Of a stretch of DNA of 64,000 nucleotides, positions 16,149 through 58,439 are shown one piece after another. Positions within the stretch are counted from its first letter, which is position 1, and each line of letters opens with the position of its first letter. The stretch comes from Candidatus Latescibacterota bacterium (GTDB taxonomy: Bacteria; Latescibacterota; UBA2968; SICM01): assembly GCA_965217865.1 (NCBI GenBank), contig CBDCJO010000002.1, positions 5,088,001 through 5,152,000 on the forward strand, in the 5' to 3' direction. The position numbers were made by a program, and so were the translations under genes. Under the pieces are notes generated by a model. That model was not told the origin of the DNA and did no database searches. It saw nothing but the letters and a program-made list of their open reading frames with translations.

Positions 16149-17674
16149 CAGCCCGTTGAAGAACTACCTTTCAACGCACATAAACGGAAAAGACGCCTGG
16201 AGTGCGGGTCAGATAAATCAAGGTAAGGAGATTGAGCAGGAGACGCTGATAAGAGGTTAAAAAGGTGACCGAGGGCAGCAAACGTGATTGTAGGACGAGC
16301 AGTAGACGCTGCAAGGCCTTGGCCAGGTCCTGGAGGGCCTTCGGAGTACCTACGCCCATCACTTTGCGCATGAGCAGAGCCAGGTTGCAGCCCCCGATGT
16401 GGATCAGCAAACGCTTGAGGATATTGCCGCGGTCTCTCAAGTGCAACCTGCGCATGCCACCGGTATCATATGTGTGAGCGATGGTTCTTTCCACCCGTTC
16501 TGCACGACTTCGGCGCAAGACCTTGCCGCGATCTCCCTTGATCCGGCGTCGATTCGCATATACCGCGGCCTGCTCATCTCGTCGGCCGTTCCACTTGCGG
16601 CGTCCCCGATCCGGTTCTGAAATGTAACTCCGGATGCCGCCTTGCTTCAGACTGGTCAATACATCGTTGCTATGATATCCTTTGTCCGCAACCACCTCCC
16701 GTATACGCTGTCTGTGCAAACGTTTGGCAGCTTTTTCGTCCTTCGCGACCTGCTTGAGATTGAGCTGCGCCTCGAGCAGCGTCCAGGGCAACGACTCGGT
16801 ATCTCCTTCATCTGCTCCCGACAACGCCACTGCCACAATGGCATTGGTGTCCAGATCCACCGCGTGCTCCACCTTGTGCGCCATGTGCGTGCGACCGTCC
16901 TTCATCTTAGCGATCTTGGCATCCGGGTCGTGCGGGTGCTCCCAGTCCTGGTTCGATCCCTTCTTCGGTCGCTTCTTATCGATCTTGGACAAGTCCTCGC
17001 GGGTAGGCGTTTCAATGCCCGAGGCCTTGGCCAGATTCTCAAGGAATGCCTGGTAGCCTTCACCCGTGTCACGGCGTACAATGCTGCGCATCGCGGCGTT
17101 GGCCTCCAGTGTCGTAGCATCCACGCCCAACGTCTTCCCCTTCACCAGACCCGCTTTGCACAAGACCCTCAGGATCCACTTGAAAACCGCTTCGTGAACT
17201 TCCAAGGGAAGCCGATGCCGGATGCGAGACAGGCTGGAATGATCCGGGGTCTGTTCGTCAAGGGCATACCCCAAAAACCGGCGCAACGTCAGCGAGTCAG
17301 ATACACGCCATTCGATCCCACGTTCCGAATCAAGTCCCTCGAAATACCCAATCAAAAGCATCCGAAAATAAACCCCGGGCGGAATGCCCTTGCGACCCAT
17401 ATGAGGAGCGTAATACCGCTGGCAAAGCCCCTCGACGAACTCGTCGAAGCCGTTCGCCCCCAATACCTGATTCAGCTTCTCGTAGAACGGATGACCCGGA
17501 AATTTCACCAAAGTGTTCGATGCGATGAACAGGTTTTCCTGTCTCTGTCGTCCTCGTTTTCCCATTGCCATTTGCTCGTCCTCCCTTCTCAGTTTGAACC
17601 TGATATATCATAGGACCAAACCACAAGGAAAGACAATAGTCATCTTGGCATAAACGCACTTTTTCAACAGGCTG
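16149..17674 (-). mobile_element. IS5/IS1182-like insertion sequence, copy 1
   Basis: Terminal IRs CAGCCCGTTGAAGAA / TTTTTCAACAGGCTG; flanking TTAG duplication; near-identical copy at 56409-57934. Confidence 0.95.
16171..17571 (-). CDS. DDE transposase (DUF772-type N-terminus)
   Basis: GRKGIPP, SERGIE, PDHSSLSR, VDATTLEANA, VADKGY, R..VER motifs. Confidence 0.93.
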   Translation of the reverse strand: MAMGKRGRQRQENLFIASNTLVKFPGHPFYEKLNQVLGANGFDEFVEGLCQRYYAPHMGRKGIPPGVYFRMLLIGYFEGLDSERGIEWRVSDSLTLRRFLGYALDEQTPDHSSLSRIRHRLPLEVHEAVFKWILRVLCKAGLVKGKTLGVDATTLEANAAMRSIVRRDTGEGYQAFLENLAKASGIETPTREDLSKIDKKRPKKGSNQDWEHPHDPDAKIAKMKDGRTHMAHKVEHAVDLDTNAIVAVALSGADEGDTESLPWTLLEAQLNLKQVAKDEKAAKRLHRQRIREVVADKGYHSNDVLTSLKQGGIRSYISEPDRGRRKWNGRRDEQAAVYANRRRIKGDRGKVLRRSRAERVERTIAHTYDTGGMRRLHLRDRGNILKRLLIHIGGCNLALLMRKVMGVGTPKALQDLAKALQRLLLVLQSRLLPSVTFLTSYQRLLLNLLTLIYLTRTPGVFSVYVR

Positions 17675-40808: not shown

Positions 40809-41873
40809 TCACATCTCACGTTTGCCGACTTTCCCGACGAACACGCCTGCTCGTGCGGCGAGATCAATCGCCTTGCGTGCGTCTATCACCCTGGGGCCGT
40901 TGACATTAAGCCGCAATCGGACAGTGGCGCCTGGCCGGAGTTCGATTTCGCGCTCGCCATCGAGGGCAAGCACACAAGGCTTTTGGTGGCTGACTACGAC
41001 CTCCTCGCACGGCGCCAGCAGTCGGTACTCAGATACGCTTACCTGTCGGATGAGGCCAGGGGCAATGGGTGCCAGCACTTGCTGGCCGCCCGGCTCCAGG
41101 CTAAGATACAGCCCCTGTCCTCGACTGAGCGAAGTCGAAGGATCGGACGAGTGATTCCCGTCAAGAAAGTGGGCACCAATGGATGACAGTCCGATGTTGC
41201 CAGCTTCGGCGTGGGTCAAGATGACTTCCTTGATTTTTGACACATCCCAGATTGCCCGAGAGGCGATAAATCGCTCGTCATACACGGCTGCATCTACCAG
41301 AGCGATGTCGTCAGGCGCATCGGCTGCCCGGATGGCTGCATCGCTGCCGCCCTCAGCGGACTTGCCATAAAGGACGTCCAAGCGCGGCACGACCCCCACG
41401 GCCTCGTCGGCCAGCCCGCGCGCGACCAGCCCTGCGGCCATCCCGGCAATGGTGCCTTCGATCATCGTGGGAAAAACGTTGTTGGTGCCGGTGGAGATCG
41501 GCATGAGGGGGACGTCACCGCTGGACTTGGCCACAGCGCGGTTGGTGCCGTCACCACCCAGCGTGGCGATACAGCCGACGCGGTCCGCAGCCATGTGTCC
41601 CGCAGCACGCGTGGAGTCCTGCTGGGTGAATGTTGTAGGCAAGGACAGGACCGGGGCATCGAGCCCGAGCTGCAGCCCGTCAAGCGCCTTACGGCCGATG
41701 CCAAACGATTCGGGCATGATCAAAACGCGGTCCACGCCCACGGCATCCAGCCCCAGCAACACCCGACGGACGATGTTGACTTTTTCGTCGTTGTCGAACA
41801 CCGTGCCGTGGGCCACCAGTCGGCGGATATCTTTGCCCGATGCCGGGTTCGCGATGATGCCAACGGTGATCAT
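40809..41873 (-). CDS. acoX: Acetoin catabolism protein X / ATP-NAD kinase family
   Basis: VGIIANPASGKDIRRLVA, LGGDGTNR, STGTNNVFP, ALDGERE. Confidence 0.9.
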   Translation of the reverse strand: MITVGIIANPASGKDIRRLVAHGTVFDNDEKVNIVRRVLLGLDAVGVDRVLIMPESFGIGRKALDGLQLGLDAPVLSLPTTFTQQDSTRAAGHMAADRVGCIATLGGDGTNRAVAKSSGDVPLMPISTGTNNVFPTMIEGTIAGMAAGLVARGLADEAVGVVPRLDVLYGKSAEGGSDAAIRAADAPDDIALVDAAVYDERFIASRAIWDVSKIKEVILTHAEAGNIGLSSIGAHFLDGNHSSDPSTSLSRGQGLYLSLEPGGQQVLAPIAPGLIRQVSVSEYRLLAPCEEVVVSHQKPCVLALDGEREIELRPGATVRLRLNVNGPRVIDARKAIDLAARAGVFVGKVGKREM

Positions 41874-43243
41874 TGGGCTGGAAGAACCTCACGCAGGAAG
41901 TCGAGCGTCAGGTCGGTCACCCGCCGGAAGCCGGGGCTGCCCGCTCTGACCCAGTCGAAGTGGCCCATGTCGGGCACGATCGACAACTGCCGCGGCTCGC
42001 CAGCGCGCGCGAACAAGCTACGCGATTCGTCAGCCGGAACCTGGCGATCGGCATTGCCGTGGATAAACAGCACAGGCCGTGGAGCAATGCGCTCAACCTG
42101 GTCTTCGGGCCGAAACTCGATCAACGCCTCTGCTGTCTCCAGCGACAAATCGCACTTCATCTGAGGGTACTCCTGATAGACACCCTCCAGGAAGCCCCTG
42201 GAGTCGGGATCGGGCACGACGATGTCCAGGGGATCCACACGAGCCGACTCTCCCGTCATCACTCGCTGCGAGCGATCCTGCACGAGCCGCTCCCGGAACT
42301 CCAGCCATTCGGGGTGGGGACGCAGGCTACGTAACCAGCGCTCCCCATCGCCCACGGCCTGGATAGCGACCACTGCGCCGACCCGCCGATCGACTGCCCC
42401 GGTTACGATTGCGTGCGATCCGCCCAGACTCACGCCGAGTACGGCCAAGCGTTCTGGATCGACCTGCGGCTGATTGGCCGCACACGTCAATGCTGCGCGA
42501 ACGTCATTTACTTGCTCCTGCGGGATGAGCCGCCAACGGGGCCCCTCGCTGTCACCGAACCCACGGTAATCAAATATCAAGGCGATGTACCCGGCTGCAT
42601 TCAGCGCCTTAGCGATGTCGGGCAAGGCAAGACCCTTGACGTAGGTGTAGCCCACGCACAGGACCACGGCAGGGCGTTTCTCATCGGGGTTAAGATCCCC
42701 GGGCGTGTATAACAGACCGTCCAGGCGGTGGCCTTCGCTGAAGAAGGTGATCTTTCGAATCGGCCGGATGACCGTCCCCAGGGCTCGCTCTACGTCTTTC
42801 CCGGTGATCGCCATACCCGGACCCGTTCCCTGTATCCCGGCCAGATCCAGGCCGTGCTCTTTGGCTATTCGCCGAGCGGCGGGCATGGCGCGGATGATGC
42901 CAGCCGGCGATGGCGCCGGCTGGGGAAGAGGACCCGACACCGGCGCACCCGCGCTCTCGTCAACAGGCGGTTCAGGCGGTGTGGTTACGTCGGGAAGGGG
43001 TTCGCCCGGCTCAGTGATCAGGGCTATGACCTGGCTGATCGGCACGTGGCTGCCAGCCGGCTGAAGGATCCGGGCCAGAATGCCGGAGGCCGGCGCTTCA
43101 ACCATAGAGACCATTTTCTCCGTCTCAACCTCCGCCAATGGTTCATCTTTTTCGACACGGTCGCCCTCCTGCTTGAGCCACTGGGCGATAAGGCCCTCCT
43201 GCATGCTCAGCCCCCACTTAGGCATAACGACCTCGAATGCCAT
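41870..43243 (-). CDS. acoC: AcoC-like E2: lipoyl domain, E3-binding domain and alpha/beta-hydrolase
   Basis: MPKWGLSMQEG..ETEK lipoyl motif, AMPAARRIAKEHGLDL..GTGP subunit-binding motif, GVSLGG nucleophile elbow, GNADRQV, GHF. Confidence 0.8.
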   Translation of the reverse strand: MAFEVVMPKWGLSMQEGLIAQWLKQEGDRVEKDEPLAEVETEKMVSMVEAPASGILARILQPAGSHVPISQVIALITEPGEPLPDVTTPPEPPVDESAGAPVSGPLPQPAPSPAGIIRAMPAARRIAKEHGLDLAGIQGTGPGMAITGKDVERALGTVIRPIRKITFFSEGHRLDGLLYTPGDLNPDEKRPAVVLCVGYTYVKGLALPDIAKALNAAGYIALIFDYRGFGDSEGPRWRLIPQEQVNDVRAALTCAANQPQVDPERLAVLGVSLGGSHAIVTGAVDRRVGAVVAIQAVGDGERWLRSLRPHPEWLEFRERLVQDRSQRVMTGESARVDPLDIVVPDPDSRGFLEGVYQEYPQMKCDLSLETAEALIEFRPEDQVERIAPRPVLFIHGNADRQVPADESRSLFARAGEPRQLSIVPDMGHFDWVRAGSPGFRRVTDLTLDFLREVLPAQ

Positions 43244-43258
43244 ACCATCTCCCTCAGC

Positions 43259-44275
43259 CTATATCATCGCTTCACGGACAGCTGTGACGATGCGCGCGGG
43301 CGAGGGGACGTAGGTGTCCTCCAGTCCCGGGCTGAACGGCACAGGCGTGTGTGGTGCGGTTACCAGTTTGACAGGCGCGTTCAGATATTCTATAGCTTGC
43401 GTGGCCGCAAGGGCGGCGATATCCGTTGCCACACTGCAGCGCGGGTTGTCCTCGTCCACGACGACCAGCCGGCCCGTCTTGCGGATCGAACTCAAAATGG
43501 TGTCGGCATCCAGCGGCACGAGGGTCCGAGGATCGACCACTTCAGCGCTAATGCCATCCTTTGCAAGCTCGTCGGCAGCTTGAAGCGAGAAGTCCACCAT
43601 GCGCGATACGGCGACGATGGTCACGTCCGAACCCTCACGCTTGATGTCCGCCTCGCCCAGAGGAATTACGAATTCCCCCTGGGGCACGGGCCCCTTGGTA
43701 TCGTACAGGAGCTTATGTTCGCAAAAAATGACCGGATCGTCGTCGCGAATTGACGCCAGCAGCAGGCCCTTGGCGTCGGCGGGCGTGGATGGGACGACGA
43801 CCTTCAACCCGGGGATGTGTACAAACATCGAGTAAACCGAGTCCGAGTGCTGCGCAGCGGCCCGGAGTCCGGCACCGATCATGGTTCGGATGACCAGTGG
43901 GATCTTGGCCTTGCCTCCGAACATATAGCGCATCTTGGCGGCCTGGTTGCTGATCTGGTCCAGGCATACCCCCATGAACCCGATGAACATCAGCTCGACC
44001 ACCGGCCGCAGGCCGCTCGCGGCCGCGCCCACGCCGGTTCCTATAAACGCCGACTCCGTGATGGGCGTGTCGCGCACGCGTTCGCGCCCGAACTTGTGGA
44101 TCAAGCCTTTAGTCACGCCGAGTGCGCCCCCCCACGTGTCGAGATGTGCCGGGTCATCGCTCTGAGGGGCACCTGAGATATCCTCGCCCATGACCACCAC
44201 CGTCGAATCGCGACCCATCTCCAGGTGCAAGGCCTCATTAAGGGCCTCACGATAGCTCAACGACCTTTCAGCCAT
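43259..44275 (-). CDS. acoB: TPP-dependent acetoin/2-oxoacid dehydrogenase E1 beta subunit
   Basis: GEDI, DTPITE, GLRPVVELMF, NQAAKMRYMFGG, AAQHS, DPRTLVPLD. Confidence 0.92.
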   Translation of the reverse strand: MAERSLSYREALNEALHLEMGRDSTVVVMGEDISGAPQSDDPAHLDTWGGALGVTKGLIHKFGRERVRDTPITESAFIGTGVGAAASGLRPVVELMFIGFMGVCLDQISNQAAKMRYMFGGKAKIPLVIRTMIGAGLRAAAQHSDSVYSMFVHIPGLKVVVPSTPADAKGLLLASIRDDDPVIFCEHKLLYDTKGPVPQGEFVIPLGEADIKREGSDVTIVAVSRMVDFSLQAADELAKDGISAEVVDPRTLVPLDADTILSSIRKTGRLVVVDEDNPRCSVATDIAALAATQAIEYLNAPVKLVTAPHTPVPFSPGLEDTYVPSPARIVTAVREAMI

Positions 44276-44279
44276 CGGG

Positions 44280-45296
44280 TTACCTCCTTATCTGGACCGC
44301 TGGCGTCTGGAACGGCCACAGCTCGGATTCAGGGAAGCCGACATAAACATCGGTCAGGGTTTCCGCCGGGTCGGGCTGGGGGCTCTCTTGGGCAAAACGG
44401 CAAGCCTCTTCTATGGCGTCCTTCGTCTCGAGGTCGATGGCATCCAGCTCGCTCTGGCTCAGTAGGCCCTGCTGCAGCACGGTTTTGCGGAAGAGATGGA
44501 TACAGTCCCTGGAGAGAAGGAATTCCTCTTCTTTTTCGGGCCGGTAGAGATCGGTATCGCCTTCGAAGTGACCATATTTGCGGTACGTCTGGGCCTCGAT
44601 GAAAGCCGGGCCTTCGCCACCCCGCGCGCGATCCACAGCCGCCCGCGTAGCTTCGTACACGGCGAACACATCCTGACCATCAAGGGCCATACCGGGCATG
44701 CCAAAACCACCCGCCCGCGCAGCGATATCGTTGCCTGATACAGAGTAAGCGGCGGCGGTCGTCTGGGCATACCGGTTGTTCTCGCAAACGAAGATGACGG
44801 GTAACTTCCAGACGCCGGCCAGGTTCATCGCCTCCAGGGTAGTACCCTGGTTGGAGGCACCGTCGCCGAAGAAGCAAACTGTCACCTGGTCTGTGCTTTT
44901 CACCTTGGCCGTAAGACCGGAACCACAGGCCAGAGGCGGCCCGCCACCGACGATACCGTTGGCGCCGAGCATCCCTTTCGACATATCGGCGATGTGCATT
45001 GAGCCGCCCTTACCTTTGCAGGCGCCGGTGGCCTTACCACAGATCTCAGCCACCATCAACTTGACATCTACGCCTTTGGCAATGCAATGGCCGTGGCCCC
45101 GGTGGGTGCTGGTGATGAAGTCATCATCCGTGAGATTAGCGCACACCCCCACTGCGACAGCTTCTTCACCGGCGTACAGGTGGACGAATCCGGGAATCTT
45201 TCCTGCAGCGAAATCCACATGAATGCGTTCCTCGAACTCCCGGATTAAACGCATGCGCTCGTACATCCAGAGTAGCTTGTCTTTCCCGATTTCCAT
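44280..45296 (-). CDS. acoA: TPP-dependent acetoin dehydrogenase E1 alpha subunit (own RBS and ATG inside the long ORF)
   Basis: PGFVHLYAGEEA, STHRGHGH, GKGGSMH, GDGASNQG TPP motif, ENN, GHFEGD; AGGGAGG RBS before ATG 45296. Confidence 0.92.
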   Translation of the reverse strand: MEIGKDKLLWMYERMRLIREFEERIHVDFAAGKIPGFVHLYAGEEAVAVGVCANLTDDDFITSTHRGHGHCIAKGVDVKLMVAEICGKATGACKGKGGSMHIADMSKGMLGANGIVGGGPPLACGSGLTAKVKSTDQVTVCFFGDGASNQGTTLEAMNLAGVWKLPVIFVCENNRYAQTTAAAYSVSGNDIAARAGGFGMPGMALDGQDVFAVYEATRAAVDRARGGEGPAFIEAQTYRKYGHFEGDTDLYRPEKEEEFLLSRDCIHLFRKTVLQQGLLSQSELDAIDLETKDAIEEACRFAQESPQPDPAETLTDVYVGFPESELWPFQTPAVQIRR

Positions 45297-48200
45297 TCGC
45301 AATCCCTCCCTGTGTCTATTTAACTTGACAAAAGTCGAGAAATCATTTAGGATTGTTTCGTTGAGTGCCTTTCTCCTTGCCCGTATTTCTTGACCCCTTT
45401 TCCACCTGGTGAGATCCCGGATGGCGGTGACCCTGACGGTCCGTCCCCGGTAGGGGACAGCCCTTCCTGTAACCTCGATGGGAAAAGTAGATCCGTCCTT
45501 TCTCAGGCCGACGACCTCATAGGGCCTTTTAGATCCGGATTGAATATTCTTGTAGATTGTTTCGTGGAATTCCGCGGGCGTAAGGTCCGCGGCCGTCTTC
45601 CCGATCATCTCCGAAGGCTCGTAACCAAACATCGATGCCAGCGATTGATTTGCATCCAGGATTTTACCCTCTTCGTGGAGGACGATACCCTCGAAGGCGG
45701 CCTCGGAGAGCCCTCGAAACCGCGCCTCGCTCTCTCGCATTGCCCGGCCCCTCCGGACGGCACGGGAACCCTGCCACACGATCAGCATCCCGGCGAGACA
45801 AAGCGCCAGGACCCCGAAGATCCGGTCATACGGCAGACGCACCTGGAGCGTTACAGTCGCGGGCTGTTCCGAGGGGACCAGGTCCCGGTCCACGGCCATG
45901 ACCTCGAACGTGTAGCTCCCTCTCGGAAGGTCCTGGTACTCCACCCTCCGGGTGTTTGTCGAGATCCAGCCCTCATCGTAGCCTTTCAGACGATATCGGA
46001 AGACCATCGCTTCCGCCCGTGTCTTGAAGCTCATTCCCGAAAATTCAAATGCGACAAGGTCCACAGTCGACGGGATCTCGATACCGGACACGGCCTCATA
46101 TCGTTTATCTGCAACCACGGCTTCGATGGAAACCCCCGGAGGAAACTTCGGGGGTTCACGATAGCGCGTGACACCCCTGACGGTTCCGATCCAGAGATCG
46201 CCCTCCCGGTCCTGGGTGATCGACGTGACCTGATTGCCGGCCAAACCATCCCGGTGGTCAATCGTCTGAAAGTTGACCCCATCGTATCGCGTTACGCCGC
46301 CGCCATAAGTGCCGAACAATAGATGGCCCCGTCGGTCCTGATAGATTGCCCGCACCACATTTTCGCCCAGGCCATCATCTTTTGTGATGGTCGTAAATCC
46401 TTTGCCGTCGAATCGACTCACGCCCCCACCCTCCGTGCCGAACCAGAGGATCCCCGCGCGATCTTCGAACATCGAAAAGACCACGTTGTGCGCCAATCCG
46501 TCTTCTGTGGTAAATGTCGTGAATCCCGGAGATTCCGGGCTTGGAGAGGGATCGAACCGGCTCACCCCGTCTCCCTGGGTGGCAAACCAGAGATATCCCT
46601 TCCGGTCCTGAAGAATGGACCACACTTTATAAGCAAGCCCATCCTGAATGTCGTATGTGGTCCACACCGGTCCGGATTTTCCTGAAGGATCGTATCGGCT
46701 CACCCCACCGCCAAAGGTCCCGAACCAGTATACGCCATCCCGATCCTGAAAAATGGACCATACCTCATCGTGGGCCAGGCCGTCTCCGGTTGAAAATGTC
46801 GTCCATGTCCGGCCATCATAGCGGGACACCCCTCCGCCCTTGGTCCCAAACCAGATGTGGCCCTCTCTATCCTGAAATACGGTGCGTACCTGAAGATTTC
46901 CGAGGCCGTCTTCCGGCGTGTAAGTCGCAAAGGTTCCATCACGATGATACCGGGTCGCCCCACCGTATGTGCCGAACCAGAGATCCCCGTGCCCATCTTC
47001 CAGGACCGAGAGCACCACATCGTGTCCGATCCCTTCCTCTGAGGTGAAAGAAATGAGGCTCTGGTCATAGCGGCTCACACCTCCGCCGGTACCGAACCAG
47101 AGATCCCCTTCTCGATCCTGAAATATCGACCCCACCCAGTTGCCCGCCAACCCGTCATCAGTGGTGATGGTTGTAAATCGTTTGAGACGGGGGTCAGCAG
47201 GCTTCTGTCCAGAGCTTATGGAGGGATCATACTTGCTCACACCTCCGCCCTGGCTTCCAAACCAGATATAGCCATCCCTATCCTGAAATATCGTGGATAC
47301 GCTATTGCTTCCAAGACCTTCTCGAGTTGTGAAGGTGATAAAGCGGTAGAAATTGTCGCTGCCGGTGGTTGAAGCCCCAACCTTCATCCTGTTCATGGGC
47401 TTTGATCCCAGGCCATACCGGGTTATCCCGCCATCTACGGTCCCAATCCAGAAATATCCTTCCCGATCCTGAAATACCGCCTGAACCAGATTGGCACCAA
47501 GGCCATCCTGGGTGGTGAATGTTGTCCAGGCTCTTTCAGCTCTTGCCAATGGATCATAAAGGCTCATCCCTGTCCCGGTAGCGAACCAGAAATGGCCCGC
47601 TCGATCCTGAACCATCGAAGTAACCTCCTCCCCGGCAAGACCATCCTGTGTACTAAACGTGATCCAGGCCTGTCCATCGAAACGGCTCACACCAGAGGTT
47701 GTCCCCACCCATAAAAGTCCGGATTGATCCAGGAACCAGGTCAAGGCGAGAATACCCTCCGGTTCGTCTTTAAAGTTGAAGACACTGGTGCGAAAAGTAT
47801 TTCCGCCTATTTTGAAGTCCATTGCGGGATGGGGTTCTGAAACTCCAACCCTTTTGTCCGATGGGGAGGGATCGAACCGGTTGAAACCGATTTCACTGCC
47901 CAACCATAGATTTCCCCCCGCATCTTGAAGAATCGTGCGGACTCTATTGGACAGCAGGCCGTTTTTCGTGGTGTAATTTGTCCAACGGAGCCCATCATAC
48001 CTGCTCAGACCATTTGACGTGCCAAACCAGATGTGTCCCTCTCGATCCTGTACAATCCCGTTCACGTTCACATTTACAAGCCCATCTGTCACATCGTAGG
48101 TGCGCCATTGACCTCTTCCGTGTTCAGCTGATATGGATTTTCCCGGACCAGAAGACACGATTTTCCCAGGCCCCGCAGGAGCGGTATATATACGGAATTC

Positions 48201-48608
48201 GTGTTGTATAAGGCCGGTTGGGAACGCAATTCCAAAGGCCGCACCCAGGCCGCGAAGGGCGGTGACCCATTCCGAATCGTTCTGTAAGGCTCTGTTTTTC
48301 TCCGCGATCTCGGATGGCGCGCTCACCTCAAACAGGCGGCTGAAGATGCCGTCGGGCCCGGGTCTCGGACGTTGAGTGGATTCCTTCAAGCCGTGTTTCG
48401 ACAAGATAGGCACGAGCTTCTCCGCATAGGAGGTCTCGAACTCTGCAATTCGATCGGGAGGGACCCAGAAAGAGAGGCGTGAAAGGGTGGGGGAGGGAGG
48501 GGAGGTGCGCGAAGCGGAGATACGATCGGAGGACCAGCCGTCGGAGAAGAAGAGGGAAATGCAAAATAAAAAGTGAAAAGTGAAAATTGTAAATTTGAGA
48601 AAAGTCAA
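44280..48608 (-). CDS. Membrane sensor (two-component regulator propeller repeats, YYY domain, TM helix, PAS) in frame with AcoA
   Basis: Many DREGxxWFGT..GGVSRYD repeats, YRLKGYD..W...EY.DLP.G.Y.FEV.A (YYY), TM helix, PAS (SEARFR...RKDGSTFPIEV); no stop before acoA. Confidence 0.75.
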   Translation of the reverse strand: MTFLKFTIFTFHFLFCISLFFSDGWSSDRISASRTSPPSPTLSRLSFWVPPDRIAEFETSYAEKLVPILSKHGLKESTQRPRPGPDGIFSRLFEVSAPSEIAEKNRALQNDSEWVTALRGLGAAFGIAFPTGLIQHEFRIYTAPAGPGKIVSSGPGKSISAEHGRGQWRTYDVTDGLVNVNVNGIVQDREGHIWFGTSNGLSRYDGLRWTNYTTKNGLLSNRVRTILQDAGGNLWLGSEIGFNRFDPSPSDKRVGVSEPHPAMDFKIGGNTFRTSVFNFKDEPEGILALTWFLDQSGLLWVGTTSGVSRFDGQAWITFSTQDGLAGEEVTSMVQDRAGHFWFATGTGMSLYDPLARAERAWTTFTTQDGLGANLVQAVFQDREGYFWIGTVDGGITRYGLGSKPMNRMKVGASTTGSDNFYRFITFTTREGLGSNSVSTIFQDRDGYIWFGSQGGGVSKYDPSISSGQKPADPRLKRFTTITTDDGLAGNWVGSIFQDREGDLWFGTGGGVSRYDQSLISFTSEEGIGHDVVLSVLEDGHGDLWFGTYGGATRYHRDGTFATYTPEDGLGNLQVRTVFQDREGHIWFGTKGGGVSRYDGRTWTTFSTGDGLAHDEVWSIFQDRDGVYWFGTFGGGVSRYDPSGKSGPVWTTYDIQDGLAYKVWSILQDRKGYLWFATQGDGVSRFDPSPSPESPGFTTFTTEDGLAHNVVFSMFEDRAGILWFGTEGGGVSRFDGKGFTTITKDDGLGENVVRAIYQDRRGHLLFGTYGGGVTRYDGVNFQTIDHRDGLAGNQVTSITQDREGDLWIGTVRGVTRYREPPKFPPGVSIEAVVADKRYEAVSGIEIPSTVDLVAFEFSGMSFKTRAEAMVFRYRLKGYDEGWISTNTRRVEYQDLPRGSYTFEVMAVDRDLVPSEQPATVTLQVRLPYDRIFGVLALCLAGMLIVWQGSRAVRRGRAMRESEARFRGLSEAAFEGIVLHEEGKILDANQSLASMFGYEPSEMIGKTAADLTPAEFHETIYKNIQSGSKRPYEVVGLRKDGSTFPIEVTGRAVPYRGRTVRVTAIRDLTRWKRGQEIRARRKALNETILNDFSTFVKLNRHREGLRMEIGKDKLLWMYERMRLIREFEERIHVDFAAGKIPGFVHLYAGEEAVAVGVCANLTDDDFITSTHRGHGHCIAKGVDVKLMVAEICGKATGACKGKGGSMHIADMSKGMLGANGIVGGGPPLACGSGLTAKVKSTDQVTVCFFGDGASNQGTTLEAMNLAGVWKLPVIFVCENNRYAQTTAAAYSVSGNDIAARAGGFGMPGMALDGQDVFAVYEATRAAVDRARGGEGPAFIEAQTYRKYGHFEGDTDLYRPEKEEEFLLSRDCIHLFRKTVLQQGLLSQSELDAIDLETKDAIEEACRFAQESPQPDPAETLTDVYVGFPESELWPFQTPAVQIRR

Positions 48609-48657: not shown

Positions 48658-49915
48658 TCACATCTCCCGTTTCCTGACCATTTCGTGGCCTTCAAATAGG
48701 TCGTAGGCGATCGCTCCCTGGCTCTGCGCAGGAGGGGATGTGCCCAGAATGTGACAGAAGGTGGGTACGACGTCGGCTGCGTGGATGTATCCGAGTATAT
48801 TCACCGGCCGCTCGTAGATTCAAATAGTCGTAAAGATGCCAGTGACATATGAAGAAAGCGCATCCCTTCTCGTTGAGCATATAGTTCGCGACGTCAGCGA
48901 ACCAGAGGCCCTGGTACTCGCACTCCTCCAGGGCCGTGTTGAAGTCGGCCATGCGGGATGTGTAAGGGATCATGGAGGCGTGCTCCTGGTAAGGGCCGAA
49001 CCGTTCGATCAGCTCTTCGGCAAGGTCTTCCGGAACTGTAAATCCGTCCGCATAGGTGACCTGTGTGCGATAGAGTTTCATCTTTTCGCCGTCGGGAGAC
49101 AATTCAAGGAGCTTAAACCGAACCGAGGCGCGCTGGTCCTGTCCGTCGATCCGGAAGGACTCGATGGCCCAGTCGCTCCACTGACCCAATCCCGCATCCG
49201 CGATCCGGGTGGCACCATCCCTGCTGCGGCAGATGACGATCCTGTCGTAGCCCCCTCCATCACTGTCGAGCGCGAGGAGGTGAAGGCGGTTGACATCGCC
49301 TCCGAGGCGGGCGTGGATTTCGATATGCGTATCGAGAGGGGGGGCGTGACTCGAAGGCAGATTGGACCACCCTTCGGCGAGTCGTAGGGGGGGGATCTGA
49401 TCGATGCTGCGCCGCTCCGTGCGGACGGCCGTGCCGTCGTGCTCCATTTCGACGGCCACCTCCTCGCCCGAGGTGGTGTAGGCCTGACACATGGCCACCT
49501 CATAGTCGGTTTTGGAATGGCTTGGGTGACCGAAGCCGTCCACGACATAGCCCGATTGGACCCCTGAGGGATGGGCGGCCGGATAGTGGACCGCAACGCC
49601 TTTGAGCCCGGCCCGCTCCACGGCGTTCCAGATGCGCTCTGCATTCGGGGCGTGACCGTCGAAACTGTCGATCCGGTTTCCCGGGGAGGTCTCCACGTGC
49701 CACCGGGTGACGCCGTGGGTGCCGGTGTGGGCTCCGGTCGAGAGGGTCGCCCAGTTCGTGGGGGTCCAGACGGGAAAGGAGGGGAGGGTTTGATTCACGG
49801 TTCCCTCCTTCAACATCCGTTCGAAATTGGGCAGACAGCCTTCGGCAGCGAACTTTTTCACCATCGGGGTGATGAGGCCGTCCATTCCAAAGGCGTAGAT
49901 GTTTTTTTGAGACAT
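48658..49915 (-). pseudogene. Alkaline phosphatase/phosphodiesterase superfamily gene with an internal deletion
   Basis: FGMDG, WTPTNWATLSTGA..GTHG; after HLYDYLN (about 48817) another frame gives the family C-terminus DVVPTFCHILG..PAQSQG..YDLFEG, stop at 48660-48658. Confidence 0.78.
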
Positions 49916-49977: not shown

Positions 49978-51067
49978 AGGATCTTCCTGGTTCTTGATGG
50001 AAAACGAGGTTTTGTGAGGCGACATATCAGCGGGCCAACGGTCCGCGATCCGGATTAACCCACACATATTGTTCATCGTAGGACTAGATGAATCAGGATG
50101 CGGTCAGGGATTGGGGGATGTGAAATTATCGCGGCCCTTCAGGCCGCACAACGATATGGCTTTCCAAGGACCCAGGGCGCTGCCCTGGGTTGAGGGATAA
50201 CGCGCCGTTGGCGCTGAAAGAAGATCCTGACTTTAATCTCGGCTTTTCGATATGGAGATCTTCCTTGTTTTTTGTGCAACCGAAGTTCTGTAAGGCGACG
50301 CATCAGCGGGCCAACGGCCCGTGATTCCTTGGCCCAGCCCAACGGGCTGGGTTTGAATGTGAGCGAATCCAGCGGGCCAACGGTCCGCGATCCGGATTAA
50401 CCCACACATATTGTTCATCGTAGGGCTAGATGAATCAGGTTGGGGGATGTGAAATTATCGCGGCCCTTCAGGCCGCACGACGATATTGCTTTCCAAGGGA
50501 CCCAGGGCGGCTCGCCTGGGTTGAGGGATAACGCGCCGTTGGCGCTGAAAGAAGATCCTGACTTTAATCTCGGCTTTTCGATATGGAGATCTTCCTGGTT
50601 TTTTGTGCAACCGAAGTTCTGTAAGGCGACGCATCAGCGGGCCAACGGCCCGTGATTCCTTTGCCCAGTCCAACGGGCTGAGATTGAATGTGAGCGAATC
50701 CAGCGGGCCAACGGTCCGCGATCCGGATTAACCCACACATATTGTTCATCGTAGGGCTAGATGAATCAGGTTGGGGGATGTGAAATTATCGCGGCCCTTC
50801 AGGCCGCACGACGATATGGCTTTCCAAGGACCCAGGGCGCTGCCCTGGGTTGAGGGATAACGCGCCGTTGGCGCTGAAAGAAGATCCTGACTTTAATCTC
50901 GGCTTTTCGATATGGAGATCTTCCTTGTTTTTGTGCAACCGAAGTTCTGTAAGGCGACGCATCAGCGGGCCAACGGCCCGTGATTCCTTGGCCCAGCCCA
51001 ACGGGCTGGGTTTGAATGTGAGCGAATCCAGCGGGCCAACGGTCCGCGATCCGGATTAACCCACACA
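49978..51067. repeat. Tandem array of about 330-bp REP-rich units (3 full plus partial ends) with a TnpA(Y1)/RAYT remnant
   Basis: Anchor CAGCGGGCCAACGGTCCGCGATCCGGATTAACCCACACA at 50028, 50370, 50701, 51029; five short palindromes per unit. Confidence 0.92.
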
Positions 51068-51225: not shown

Positions 51226-52466
51226 TCAAGATGAACTGTCTCGCTTGGTTGCTTGACGCTCGTAAACCAGTCTGCCTGACTTAAAGACCGATACTGGCTC
51301 CCTTAAGGCGTTTAGATCTTCAAGGGGATTTTCCTTCAATAAGGTGAGATCCGCACGATACCCCGGTTTGACCTCTCCCAGCTCAGACAGGCTCATGTAC
51401 TCTGCTCCAAGGCTGGTCAAGGTTCTCAAGGCCTCCTCGTTGGAAAGGCCGGCCCTGGTGTAAGCAAGGATCTCGTCCACGAGGGAGTCGAAGGGTGTGT
51501 CGGTCGCCCCGCAATCTGTTCCTCCTATGATCTTCATCCCGAGCCTATAGAAGTGTCCGGTGTTCGTAAGACGCCCCTCCAGCCGATCGACTGCCGCCAA
51601 ATCATTCGGATTGTGAGACGCGCCTGATTTGCGATACCGCGCAGCGGTTTGAAGCCCGCTGTAAGCGGTGGGGCTGACGACGATTCCGCGATCCCGAATG
51701 CGCAGGCTGATATCTTCGTCATAACGATACCGGCCGGGAGGCTCCACAAAATTGACGTGCTCGATCATGTCCAGGCCGGCTTCGATCGCTCGCTCGATGC
51801 TCTCCGTTGCGTGACAGTGGGCGGTGATCTGCACGCTGTTCGCGTGGGCGACCTCTGTGGCCGTTTTCATCAGTTCCAGGGGGAGGTCCGCTTCGTAGGG
51901 GATTGTTCCGGGTGTCAGCCCACCCCCCGAAGCCATCAGCTTCACGAACCCGGCGCCCTGTTCCAGGTGCCCTTCGCTCAGACGGCGGACCTCTTCTACT
52001 GTGCTGACCTCACCGCCCATAAAGTGAAGGTGACCCTTGGGACGCATGAGGGCGTGGCCGCAGCTGATGATGTGGGGGGCGGCCCCAGGACTTCCCCCCG
52101 TTCCACCTGGCGTTGAAAGGGAAACATCAGGCGAGCGGGTGCGGCGCAGTCCCGCATCGTGGTGATCCCGGCCTGGATCGCGATGCGGGCGTTATTCTTC
52201 GCGCATTCCATTTTCGCCCCGTCGTCGCTCTCGATGTAGCTGGTCCTGGGCGCGCCGCTTGCGTCCAGAAAGAAATGCGCGTGGCAGTCGATCAGGCCCG
52301 GGCAGATGTAGAGTCCCGCGGCGTCGATCGTTTGGCCGGAGCGTCCCGGTTGGGATTCTGTTACCGAGTCGATTCGGTCGCCCTTTAAAACCACGTCGCG
52401 GTTCTGGTGGATAAGGCCACGGGCAACGTCTACCACGTTGGCGTTGTGGATATGGAGAGGGTTCAT
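51226..52466 (-). pseudogene. Amidohydrolase family gene with a frameshift near 52075
   Basis: PGLIDCHAH, AGITTMRD in one frame; KLMASGG, AHCH, IEH, GTDCG, ADL in another; junction in a C6 run. Confidence 0.82.
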
Positions 52467-52526
52467 AAGGGAAAATGAAAAGTGCAAAGTACAAAGTGAA
52501 AAGTGTAAAATGAAATCAAGGTAGTA

Positions 52527-55742: not shown

Positions 55743-56408
55743 GCCTTCCAGGTTCGGAAAATTTAGGTTTTCAGTTAAGTCGCGAAAGATAGCAGAAAGG
55801 GACGATAGTGTCAAGTAGGGTCGGGGATGGATACACCCTGTTTATCCGCAAGATCGCAGAACTCCTCCCAGGTGGACAATTCCAGTGGAATTCCCTTCTT
55901 GAGCCGGATTTCCCGAATTCTCCTCGACCGTTCTCCCGGGACCAACACCTCTGAAAATCCGTCAGCCGGTCTGCTTTGTTTAACGTGTCTGATAAAATCG
56001 TCCAATTGATCCTGAAATGCTTCCAAGGGAAGGAAGAAATCTACGTTGATCGAAATCAAAATGTGACCCACACCCCCGGAACCCGGATGATCCCCGCGTT
56101 CTGCAAGGCCGCACAGGATTCCGAGCATCAGGGCCAATCCGGATCCTTTATGTCCTGAGAGGCTCCCTCCCAGGGGTTGGATCGCCCCTTTGTTGGCCGA
56201 GAGGTCCGTGAAAGGATCCGTCGTGGGGCGACCCTGTTCATCCAGCAGCCATCCTTCAGGGCACGCCTCTTGTTTGGACCGCTGAACCATGATTTTTCCC
56301 CAACCCGTCGAACTGACCGACATATCAAGTTCCGCGAGTTCCTCCCCGGGGGTGGGAACCGAGATGGCCAGGGCGTTCACGCAGATCCGACCATCGGAGC
56401 CCCCATAG

Positions 56409-57934
56409 CAGCCCGTTGAAGAACTACCTTTCAACGCACATAAACGGAAAAGACGCCTGGAGTGCGGGTCAGATAAATCAAGGTAAGGAGATTGAGCAGG
56501 AGACGCTGATAAGAGGTTAAAAAGGTAACCGAGGGCAGCAAACGTGATTGTAGGACGAGCAGTAGACGCTGCAAGGCCTTGGCCAGGTCCTGGAGGGCCT
56601 TCGGAGTACCTACGCCCATCACTTTGCGCATGAGCAGAGCCAGGTTGCAGCCCCCGATGTGGATCAGCAAACGCTTGAGGATATTGCCGCGGTCTCTCAA
56701 GTGCAACCTGCGCATGCCACCGGTATCATATGTGTGAGCGATGGTTCTTTCCACCCGTTCTGCACGACTTCGGCGCAAGGCCTTGCCGCGATCTCCCTTG
56801 ATCCGGCGTCGATTCGCATATACCGCGGCCTGCTCATCTCGTCGGCCGTTCCACTTGCGGCGTCCCCGATCCGGTTCTGAAATGTAACTCCGGATGCCGC
56901 CTTGCTTCAGACTGGTCAATACATCGTTGCTATGATATCCTTTGTCCGCAACCACCTCCCGTATACGCTGTCTGTGCAAACGTTTGGCAGCTTTTTCGTC
57001 CTTCGCGACCTGCTTGAGATTGAGCGGCGCCTCGAGCAGCGTCCAGGGCAACGACTCGGTATCTCCTTCATCTGCTCCCGACAACGCCACTGCCACAATG
57101 GCATTGGTGTCCAGATCCACCGCGTGCTCCACCTTGTGCGCCATGTGCGTGCGACCGTCCTTCATCTTAGCGATCTTGGCATCCGGGTCGTGCGGGTGCT
57201 CCCAGTCCTGGTTCGATCCCTTCTTCGGTCGCTTCTTATCGATCTTGGACAAGTCCTCGCGGGTAGGCGTTTCAATGCCCGAGGCCTTGGCCAGATTCTC
57301 AAGGAATGCCTGGTAGCCTTCACCCGTGTCACGGCGTACAATGCTGCGCATCGCGGCGTTGGCCTCCAGTGTCGTAGCATCCACGCCCAACGTCTTCCCC
57401 TTCACCAGACCCGCTTTGCACAAGACCCTCAGGATCCACTTGAAAACCGCTTCGTGAACTTCCAAGGGAAGCCGATGCCGGATGCGAGACAGGCTGGAAT
57501 GATCCGGGGTCTGTTCGTCAAGGGCATACCCCAAAAACCGGCGCAACGTCAGCGAGTCAGATACACGCCATTCGATCCCACGTTCCGAATCAAGTCCCTC
57601 GAAATACCCAATCAAAAGCATCCGAAAATAAACCCCGGGCGGAATGCCCTTGCGACCCATATGAGGAGCGTAATACCGCTGGCAAAGCCCCTCGACGAAC
57701 TCGTCGAAGCCGTTCGCCCCCAATACCTGATTCAGCTTCTCGTAGAACGGATGACCCGGAGATTTCACCAAAGTGTTCGATGCGATGAACAGGTTTTCCT
57801 GTCTCTGTCGGCCTCGTTTTCCCATTGCCATTTGCTCGTCCTCCCTTCTCAGTTTGAACCTGATATATCATAGGACCAAACCACAAGGAAAGACAACAGT
57901 CATCTTGGCATAAACGCACTTTTTCAACAGGCTG
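56409..57934 (-). mobile_element. IS5/IS1182-like insertion sequence, copy 2
   Basis: Same IRs as copy 1; about 6 substitutions seen; flanks ATAG / CTAG. Confidence 0.95.
56431..57831 (-). CDS. DDE transposase (copy 2)
   Basis: 466 aa; differs from copy 1 at three residues (F/S, Q/P, V/A). Confidence 0.93.
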   Translation of the reverse strand: MAMGKRGRQRQENLFIASNTLVKSPGHPFYEKLNQVLGANGFDEFVEGLCQRYYAPHMGRKGIPPGVYFRMLLIGYFEGLDSERGIEWRVSDSLTLRRFLGYALDEQTPDHSSLSRIRHRLPLEVHEAVFKWILRVLCKAGLVKGKTLGVDATTLEANAAMRSIVRRDTGEGYQAFLENLAKASGIETPTREDLSKIDKKRPKKGSNQDWEHPHDPDAKIAKMKDGRTHMAHKVEHAVDLDTNAIVAVALSGADEGDTESLPWTLLEAPLNLKQVAKDEKAAKRLHRQRIREVVADKGYHSNDVLTSLKQGGIRSYISEPDRGRRKWNGRRDEQAAVYANRRRIKGDRGKALRRSRAERVERTIAHTYDTGGMRRLHLRDRGNILKRLLIHIGGCNLALLMRKVMGVGTPKALQDLAKALQRLLLVLQSRLLPSVTFLTSYQRLLLNLLTLIYLTRTPGVFSVYVR

Positions 57935-58439
57935 CTAGGGGGCTACCTTTCCGCGTCGACCTCCCAGGAGGACGATCCCGATTCTACCCCGATTTGCGGC
58001 CATCGCTGAGTAATAGGCAAGTCGTCCTGTATGTCCACAATTTGTGATTGTGACAATTCCGATCGGGTTCTGAATCGATTTTTCAATTGCACGATTCATC
58101 CCTTCAGACATCACCACCTGCCCGAAGCCCCGGTTTCCATCCATTTTCGCAGAAGAATCGGTTTCGTTATAGACCTTGATCCCGGCACCCGGGACAAGGT
58201 TGCCACGACGGATTTCTTTCACGTAGGGGGGGACCCGGAGGACCCCGTGGGAGTCGTGGCCGGCCAGGTTGGCCTCAACCAGGCAATCCGCCACGGTTTC
58301 CGCCTCGGAGCGGGGTGCACCCGCGGCGACGAAGACGTCGCTTGTGAATTTTTTGAGGTTTCCTGCTTTGATCCTTGGCATTGTGGAAATGAGAAGACTC
58401 TTTTAATGTCCCTTCAACATCCACCTTTGTCCTTCGCAG

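Follow-up and report, generated by a model that had tools for sequence, protein, structure and literature searches.

A sensor and a dehydrogenase subunit in one reading frame: very probably a recent deletion scar joined through a piece of an IS1595 element

Periplasmic sensors composed of Reg_prop repeats and a Y_Y_Y domain are the sensor type of the hybrid two-component systems of Bacteroides, where they are extracytoplasmic and their outputs cytoplasmic (excerpts of PMC3243724). In acoXABC acetoin dehydrogenase operons, the genes for E1-alpha, E1-beta, a lipoyl-bearing third protein and an NAD-kinase-fold protein stand together, and such operons, where known, are driven by an upstream promoter of their own (excerpts of PMC10107126). 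The scars that non-homologous end joining (NHEJ) leaves have been described in Streptomyces, where deletions of 191-23,591 bp are accompanied by microhomologies of 1-6 nt and by inserted endogenous DNA (30, 42 and 83 bp long, in one case from a transposase gene; PMC5869714), and DNA capture at NHEJ joins is reported for Sinorhizobium too (excerpts of PMC6379672). Here, we describe a locus in the genome of an uncultured bacterium (G000) in which a sensor of the first kind and an AcoA-like E1-alpha share one reading frame; the whole stretch of DNA that was analysed, 64,000 nucleotides long, is referred to as the window. In our assessment, the frame is very probably a recent, unselected deletion scar, consisting of a histidine kinase gene cut at codon 1078, a 58-bp piece of an IS1595 element and an intact acoA, which came to lie in frame by chance.

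The frame occupies positions 44280-48608 on the minus strand, from a TTG start at 48608 to the stop at 44280, and encodes 1442 aa with 0 internal stops. Its parts, numbered by residues of the fusion where applicable, are the following.

48537..48608, minus strand: TTG start and signal-peptide-like N-terminus, residues 1-24 (hydropathy, alignment to P0127)
46149..48491, minus strand: predicted extracytoplasmic part, with a family-specific N-terminal domain (about 40-160) and a Reg_prop beta-propeller (about 166-820; Pfam PF07494)
45840..46013, minus strand: Y_Y_Y domain, residues 866-923 (Pfam PF07495, 38.7 bits, above cut-off)
45765..45821, minus strand: single predicted transmembrane helix, residues 930-948 (hydropathy peak 1.95)
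45375..45689, minus strand: PAS domain, residues 974-1067, followed by the first part of the kinase signalling helix, up to residue 1078 (Pfam PAS_9, alignments, loose end of run X7)
45317..45374, minus strand: 58-bp piece, positions -68 to -11 of the IS1595 right end (identity to genomic copies)
45325..45353, plus strand: sigma-70-like site TTGACA-17-TAGGAT inside the IS piece, directed toward the sensor (antisense), a consensus match only
45297..45319, minus strand: native acoA leader with ribosome-binding site, its first 3 bp common with the IS piece (loose ends of runs X2, X4 and X7 at 45319)
44280..45296, minus strand: complete E1-alpha (AcoA-like, 338 aa), with the TPP motif GDG-x25-NN at residues 1248-1278

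This layout agrees with the original prediction, which had listed a signal-like N-terminus, propeller repeats, Y_Y_Y, a transmembrane segment, PAS and a complete E1-alpha within a 1442-aa frame, all of which were recovered by Pfam and hydropathy analysis. The TTG start is preceded by AGAGGG at a distance of 9 nt, and from there the N-terminus aligns residue for residue with the Met start of the homologue P0127. The Reg_prop match is strong (E 7.6e-73, above the Pfam cut-off, with 15 repeat motifs counted) and is followed by Y_Y_Y, likewise above its cut-off, as in the sensor class; the other class features, an export signal and, behind Y_Y_Y, a single membrane helix, are predicted from a hydropathy scan that gave two hydrophobic peaks only, at residues 3-21 and 930-948. 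The N-terminal domain is common to four further genes of the source genome. At the other end, E1_dh (PF00676) was found at residues 1117-1414, covering profile positions 1-299 of 300, and the intact GDG...NN motif and an adjoining E1-beta gene complete the features of the E1-alpha class. The distance between PAS and the acoA Met, put at about 35 aa in the original prediction, is 37 aa, made up of 11 native residues of the kinase helix (1068-1078) and 26 linker codons, to which the IS contributes 58 bp and the acoA leader 20 bp. Over the coding parts, the contig pieces listed for two public sequencing runs from two studies (X1 and X2) contain no differing letters and no gaps, so the 1442-codon frame is not a sequencing error, and the 1442-aa product is already present in public protein collections (NCBI, ENA).

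The left parent can be identified from the public protein P0122, the best match among 1006 to residues 825-1110, which is identical to fusion residues 606-1078 at 467 of 473 positions with a 3-aa gap, and is itself 5'-incomplete with a first stretch of 49 aa that has no match. Beyond the point that corresponds to residue 1078, P0122 continues for 398 aa with HisKA-like and HATPase_c domains, the former below and the latter above cut-off. The same continuation is visible in run X7, which departs from the window exactly at 45375, where codon 1078 ends, with a loose end that translates as the first residues of a P0122-type kinase continuation. In G000, the continuation has no match at up to 3 mismatches, and the best tblastn match to the lost 398 aa is a 66% identical paralogue. 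In the same genome, a paralogue with Y_Y_Y, transmembrane and PAS parts 68-75% identical to those of the fusion runs on into a kinase. The fusion thus has the signal-like N-terminus, propeller, Y_Y_Y domain, single membrane helix and PAS domain in common with the Reg_prop/Y_Y_Y sensor histidine kinases, the closest of which are P0122, P0127, P0128, P0131 and P0133 (the last four 71-74% identical over Y_Y_Y-PAS), and differs from them in lacking the HisKA/HATPase output, of which Pfam finds neither domain in the fusion and in place of which stand IS DNA and acoA. The loss amounts to at least 398 kinase codons, that is, at least 1.2 kb. Four further sensors of the same family are present in G000, on contig C2 at 2.81 Mb, 3.99 Mb and 4.16 Mb and on C1 at 0.40 Mb, three of them in pieces and one whole.

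Most of the linker is mobile-element DNA. Positions 45317-45374 match three other places in G000, each of them the right end of a 2226-bp element, and the three copies are 100% identical to each other and carry imperfect 26-bp inverted repeats and 8-bp target duplications (direct repeats). Their transposase scores above the NCBIfam cut-off for NF033547 and matches PF12762, and a SocA/Panacea-domain gene travels as a passenger; with a transposase, terminal inverted repeats and target duplication, the donor copies are IS1595 elements. The 58-bp piece is still 100% identical to these copies. It lacks the outermost 10 bp of the right end, so that it is not a clean transposition end, and it has no left end. 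In contrast to IS1595 elements with passenger genes, the junction therefore holds 58 bp only, neither a clean transposase-made end nor a mobile miniature element. Its join to the kinase is blunt (0 bp overlap), and that to the acoA leader has a 3-bp microhomology. One sigma-70-like site was found inside it, against 0.4 expected in shuffled sequences, which is weak alone. An outward IS promoter driving acoA was looked for in this piece and rejected; the sole site points the opposite way. The donor element at G000:C2:4296392-4298617 (L013), which has two identical copies, also bears, beside its SocA/Panacea gene, an ORF of 141 codons that has two hydrophobic stretches and matches nothing in Pfam, and the two genes could be an IS-borne toxin-antitoxin pair.

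The right parent is an acoA-like gene, which, as had been noted in the original prediction, retains its own strong ribosome-binding site (GGGAGG, 8-9 nt before the ATG at 45296). In three of the six runs compared (X2, X4 and X7), different, native DNA lies ahead of acoA from 45320 on, and this upstream DNA has no match in G000 at up to 3 mismatches. Two public stand-alone E1-alpha proteins of 344 aa, P0243 and P0245, are identical to the fusion E1-alpha at 321-322 of 338 positions (95%). They belong to the 90% protein cluster of the fusion (n=5), which holds the fusion, the two stand-alone proteins and two frameshifted ones; the fusion is represented there by two contigs, the longer being that of G000 and the second possibly from the same assembly. 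Orthologous operons in G007, G027, G080 and G081 are 73-78% identical and have no sensor nearby, and the DNA similarity of the acoA region to G007 starts at the ATG. Downstream of acoA, the operon continues with three genes.

43259..44275, minus strand: E1-beta (AcoB-like; Pfam, NF006667 above cut-off)
41870..43243, minus strand: protein with lipoyl, E3-binding and alpha/beta-hydrolase domains (AcoC-like layout; Pfam, NF011457 below cut-off)
40809..41873, minus strand: NAD-kinase-fold protein (AcoX-like operon position; Pfam)

The same four genes stand together in G007 and G027, where the AcoC-like protein is 71% identical in both genomes and the NAD-kinase-fold protein 64-70%. The gene content corresponds to that of the acoXABC operons (excerpts of PMC10107126), from which the locus differs in its order, A-B-C-X, and in the deletion of its native upstream region. 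The gene set fits an acetoin dehydrogenase, but none of the NCBIfam acetoin dehydrogenase models passes (for NF011457, the score is 105 and the cut-off 307, and no equivalog for E1-alpha reaches its own), and acetoin is thus a putative substrate. The protein at 41870-43243 has an alpha/beta hydrolase where the catalytic domain of a classical E2 would be expected, an arrangement conserved in G007 and G027; the best NCBIfam match of this hydrolase is the UilS-family lactonase, below cut-off.

With the two parents at hand, the reading put forward in the original prediction if the architecture were genuine, that of a signal-gated, membrane-anchored dehydrogenase, is not supported: a near-identical sensor, P0122, carries a normal kinase, and a near-identical AcoA stands alone in P0243 and P0245, the very pair of a normal-output sensor and a separate acoA for which relatives were to be checked. 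The competing suggestion that the linker looks intergenic and that a deletion had fused the genes is supported; the linker is mostly IS1595 DNA, and undeleted alleles of both ends occur in public runs. These comparisons establish the three parts of the frame and their sources, show undeleted alleles for both its ends, and put the loss from the kinase at no fewer than 398 codons. The adjacency of the kinase and acoA in the parent, and with it the size of the deletion and the number of steps, is presumed, no single contig holding both, and this counts against the deletion scar. Among the runs and contigs examined, no contig has the intact kinase together with the native acoA upstream region, exact patterns for the parental locus gave 0 matches in JGI metagenome contigs and 0 in GTDB genome contigs, and the genomes searched included none of the same genus as G000. 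A rearrangement rather than a deletion was considered and rejected, neither lost flank being present in G000 (96% complete).

The joins themselves were followed in six of 10 public runs (X1, X2, X4, X5, X6 and X7; X3 and the small-share runs X8-X10 were left out), of which X1 may be the window's own sample. At the left, or sensor-to-IS, join, contigs reach 30 letters into the IS piece in five of the six (X1, X2, X4, X5 and X6), and these runs come from two studies; at the right, or acoA-to-IS, join, they reach 30 letters in for X1, X5 and X6 (three of six). No Logan contig crosses the whole linker. A reach of 30 letters falls one short of the 31-letter bridging rule; it is as much as graph contigs that end at a repeat would be expected to overlap. 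In X2 and X4, the left join is seen, the right join is not, and acoA is native. This pattern is compatible with an intermediate allele as well as with two strains; the former, a sensor on a full IS end beside a native acoA, was dropped as unproven, the depths in X2 (about 23 for acoAB and 14 for the sensor) fitting two strains plus graph cleaning.

The same contigs bear on whether the frame is an assembly chimera, in which the sensor and acoA flanks were joined through the 58-bp repeat from different places or strains. The contig pieces that enter the repeat by 30 letters where 31 are needed, the 9.3% contamination of G000 and the left join without the right in X2 and X4 would all fit such an error. 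We nevertheless regard it as very unlikely. Both joins are unique sequences that are present separately in independently assembled runs, and the assembly, which comprises two contigs, one of them 5.77 Mb long, resolves three identical 2.2-kb IS copies, so that a mis-join at 58 bp is improbable; the missing right join in X2 fits a mixture of two strains in which a short edge was dropped by graph cleaning. Even a mis-join of the flanks would leave the sensor as a kinase cut short by IS DNA.

For the deletion scar, two routes to the same end product can be proposed. There is about an even chance that the ends were joined by end-joining repair through Ku and LigD, with a short stretch of IS DNA captured in the process; G000 encodes Ku and LigD in adjoining genes, both above cut-offs. 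With the 0- and 3-bp joins and the 58-bp endogenous insert, the locus has the features of an NHEJ scar and resembles those of Streptomyces and Sinorhizobium in its kilobase deletion, short or absent microhomology, short mobile-element insert and possession of Ku and LigD. It differs from them in that the mechanism is deduced from a natural scar, and that an IS insertion and two deletions would equally yield the product. This second route, in which an IS1595 element would have inserted between the genes and then been trimmed by two deletions, is possible at somewhat below even odds. As a natural example, the locus is a clear one: an uncultured bacterium that carries Ku and LigD has a short piece of IS DNA at the join of a deletion, and both parental ends can still be seen in public data.

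How much weight the open frame deserves depends on how often a junction of this kind would be open by chance. The 78-nt linker has one open frame out of three, the 58-bp piece being open solely in the acoA frame, and with two random joins, the real frames give a chance of 1/9; shuffling the 58 bp gives 0.157 x 1/3 = 0.05. At 5-11%, retention of the frame is little beyond chance for a deletion junction. This is also the first point against a newborn functional fusion, kept for membrane tethering, for input through PAS and propeller, or for the sensor promoter driving the operon. Such a fusion would be in keeping with the intactness of both halves, which equally speaks against the scar, with the use of the only open linker frame of three, and with the recurrence of the joins across runs: found in five of six runs from two studies, the left join marks an allele that is no one-cell rarity. 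In a structure model of PAS, linker and E1-alpha, the E1-alpha is predicted with confidence to be folded, and the post-PAS helix is modelled as running on through the linker, which would suit a functional fusion better than a scar, yet pLDDT is below 50 for 18 residues (model residues 132-149), and the alignment depth behind the model comes from E1-alpha only, so that the low confidence over PAS and linker says little. Against it also stand the ribosome-binding site and ATG that acoA has kept, the full identity of the IS piece to active copies, which leaves no adaptation visible, the absence of a second instance among the best-ranked homologues and loci searched, and the breakage of neighbouring genes, and we consider a newborn functional fusion highly improbable. 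More specific still, and a little less probable, is a gene caught at birth, in which one repair event would have supplied IS DNA as a helical spacer, attached an intact E1-alpha to the signalling helix of a dimeric membrane sensor and given rise to an allele that spread in a natural lineage through the benefit of tying the dehydrogenase to the membrane or of making it answer to an external ligand. If that reading were true, one could directly watch a regulated enzyme arise, parent and fused alleles coexisting in public samples.

A search for Reg_prop, Y_Y_Y, PAS and E1_dh in one protein, proposed as a check in the original prediction, brought up no second case in four protein searches (best 120-150 of each) and 14 loci. 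No sensor domain is listed for any of the best 120 of 846 long E1-alpha proteins (best identity among those listed, 56%), and E1_dh is absent from the best 120 of 1006 and the best 120 of 4363 sensor homologues, most of the outputs listed there being domains of the kinase, SpoIIE or sigma-54 ATPase kind. Of 179,802 representatives, the best 150 include no protein whose best stretch spans both halves, and the 16 longer E1-alpha proteins of that search have no sensor domain. Within the class, an E1-alpha match occurs in 127 of 132 genomes (271 matches, 121 of them outside those listed), and a sensor match was found neither in the 13 listed frames above 500 aa nor in G027, the 14 related loci in all. 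A literature search found no paper on a beta-propeller sensor/PAS/E1-alpha fusion. An old, conserved propeller-PAS-E1-alpha class of which this is the first member noticed is barely conceivable on this evidence: the sensor family is modular, with kinase, SpoIIE and sigma-54 ATPase ends, and E1-alpha does occur fused to other domains, but the allele with 99% identity encodes a kinase, the linker comes from IS DNA, and no homologue with both parts appeared among the best 120-150 proteins listed in each search or at the 14 loci. The marks of an evolved fusion, the same architecture in independent lineages and a conserved, protein-derived linker, were not found.

Other proteins with a domain ahead of E1-alpha came up in these searches. 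In L022 (G041:C1, near 4193000-4195300, minus strand), an apparent class-V aminotransferase ORF, so called by eye from its translation, and E1-alpha lie in one stop-free frame of more than 700 codons; in P0428, E1-alpha follows a ketoacyl-synthase domain, and in P0398, P0448 and P0456, it follows about 200 residues that have no Pfam match.

Under the deletion scar, the consequences for both genes can be sketched. The sensor would be left unable to phosphorylate anything, and the aco-like operon, deprived of its own upstream region, would depend on read-through from the sensor, against which the IS piece may contribute its promoter-like site. If the operon is still transcribed, most E1-alpha would probably be made free, from the ATG at 45296; judging from the retained start signals, both fused and free E1-alpha could be produced, as had been anticipated. 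Any full-length product would presumably be a membrane-tethered E1-alpha without an evolved link between ligand and catalysis, and since sensors of this type are extracytoplasmic with cytoplasmic outputs (excerpts of PMC3243724), it would hold the E1-alpha on the cytoplasmic side. Nothing suggests that sensor and enzyme are coupled. Should the fused protein be made and respond to a ligand, the locus would matter more, as a newly born regulated enzyme; as it stands, it is a warning and a worked example: even where the genome is near-complete, a striking one-off architecture can turn out to be a deletion scar at the level of a strain.

The region around the fusion is decaying. The gene directly upstream of the sensor has itself lost an internal segment.

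48692..49915, minus strand: phosphodiesterase-family gene that has lost about 231 internal codons and is frameshifted near 48817 (compared with its 71%-identical G007 orthologue)

Breaks in the run contigs coincide with the deletion site in this gene. Further upstream, an amidohydrolase gene (51226-52487, minus strand) lies in two overlapping frames of 163 aa and 273 aa and is apparently frameshifted, and an Ldh_2-family gene (55811-58381, minus strand) is split by another IS, whose DUF772/DDE transposase occupies 56431-57831. A similar transposase is found at 16171-17571, and between the phosphodiesterase-family and amidohydrolase genes, positions 50028-51067 hold an intergenic tandem array with a 331-bp unit in 3.1 copies (94% matches).
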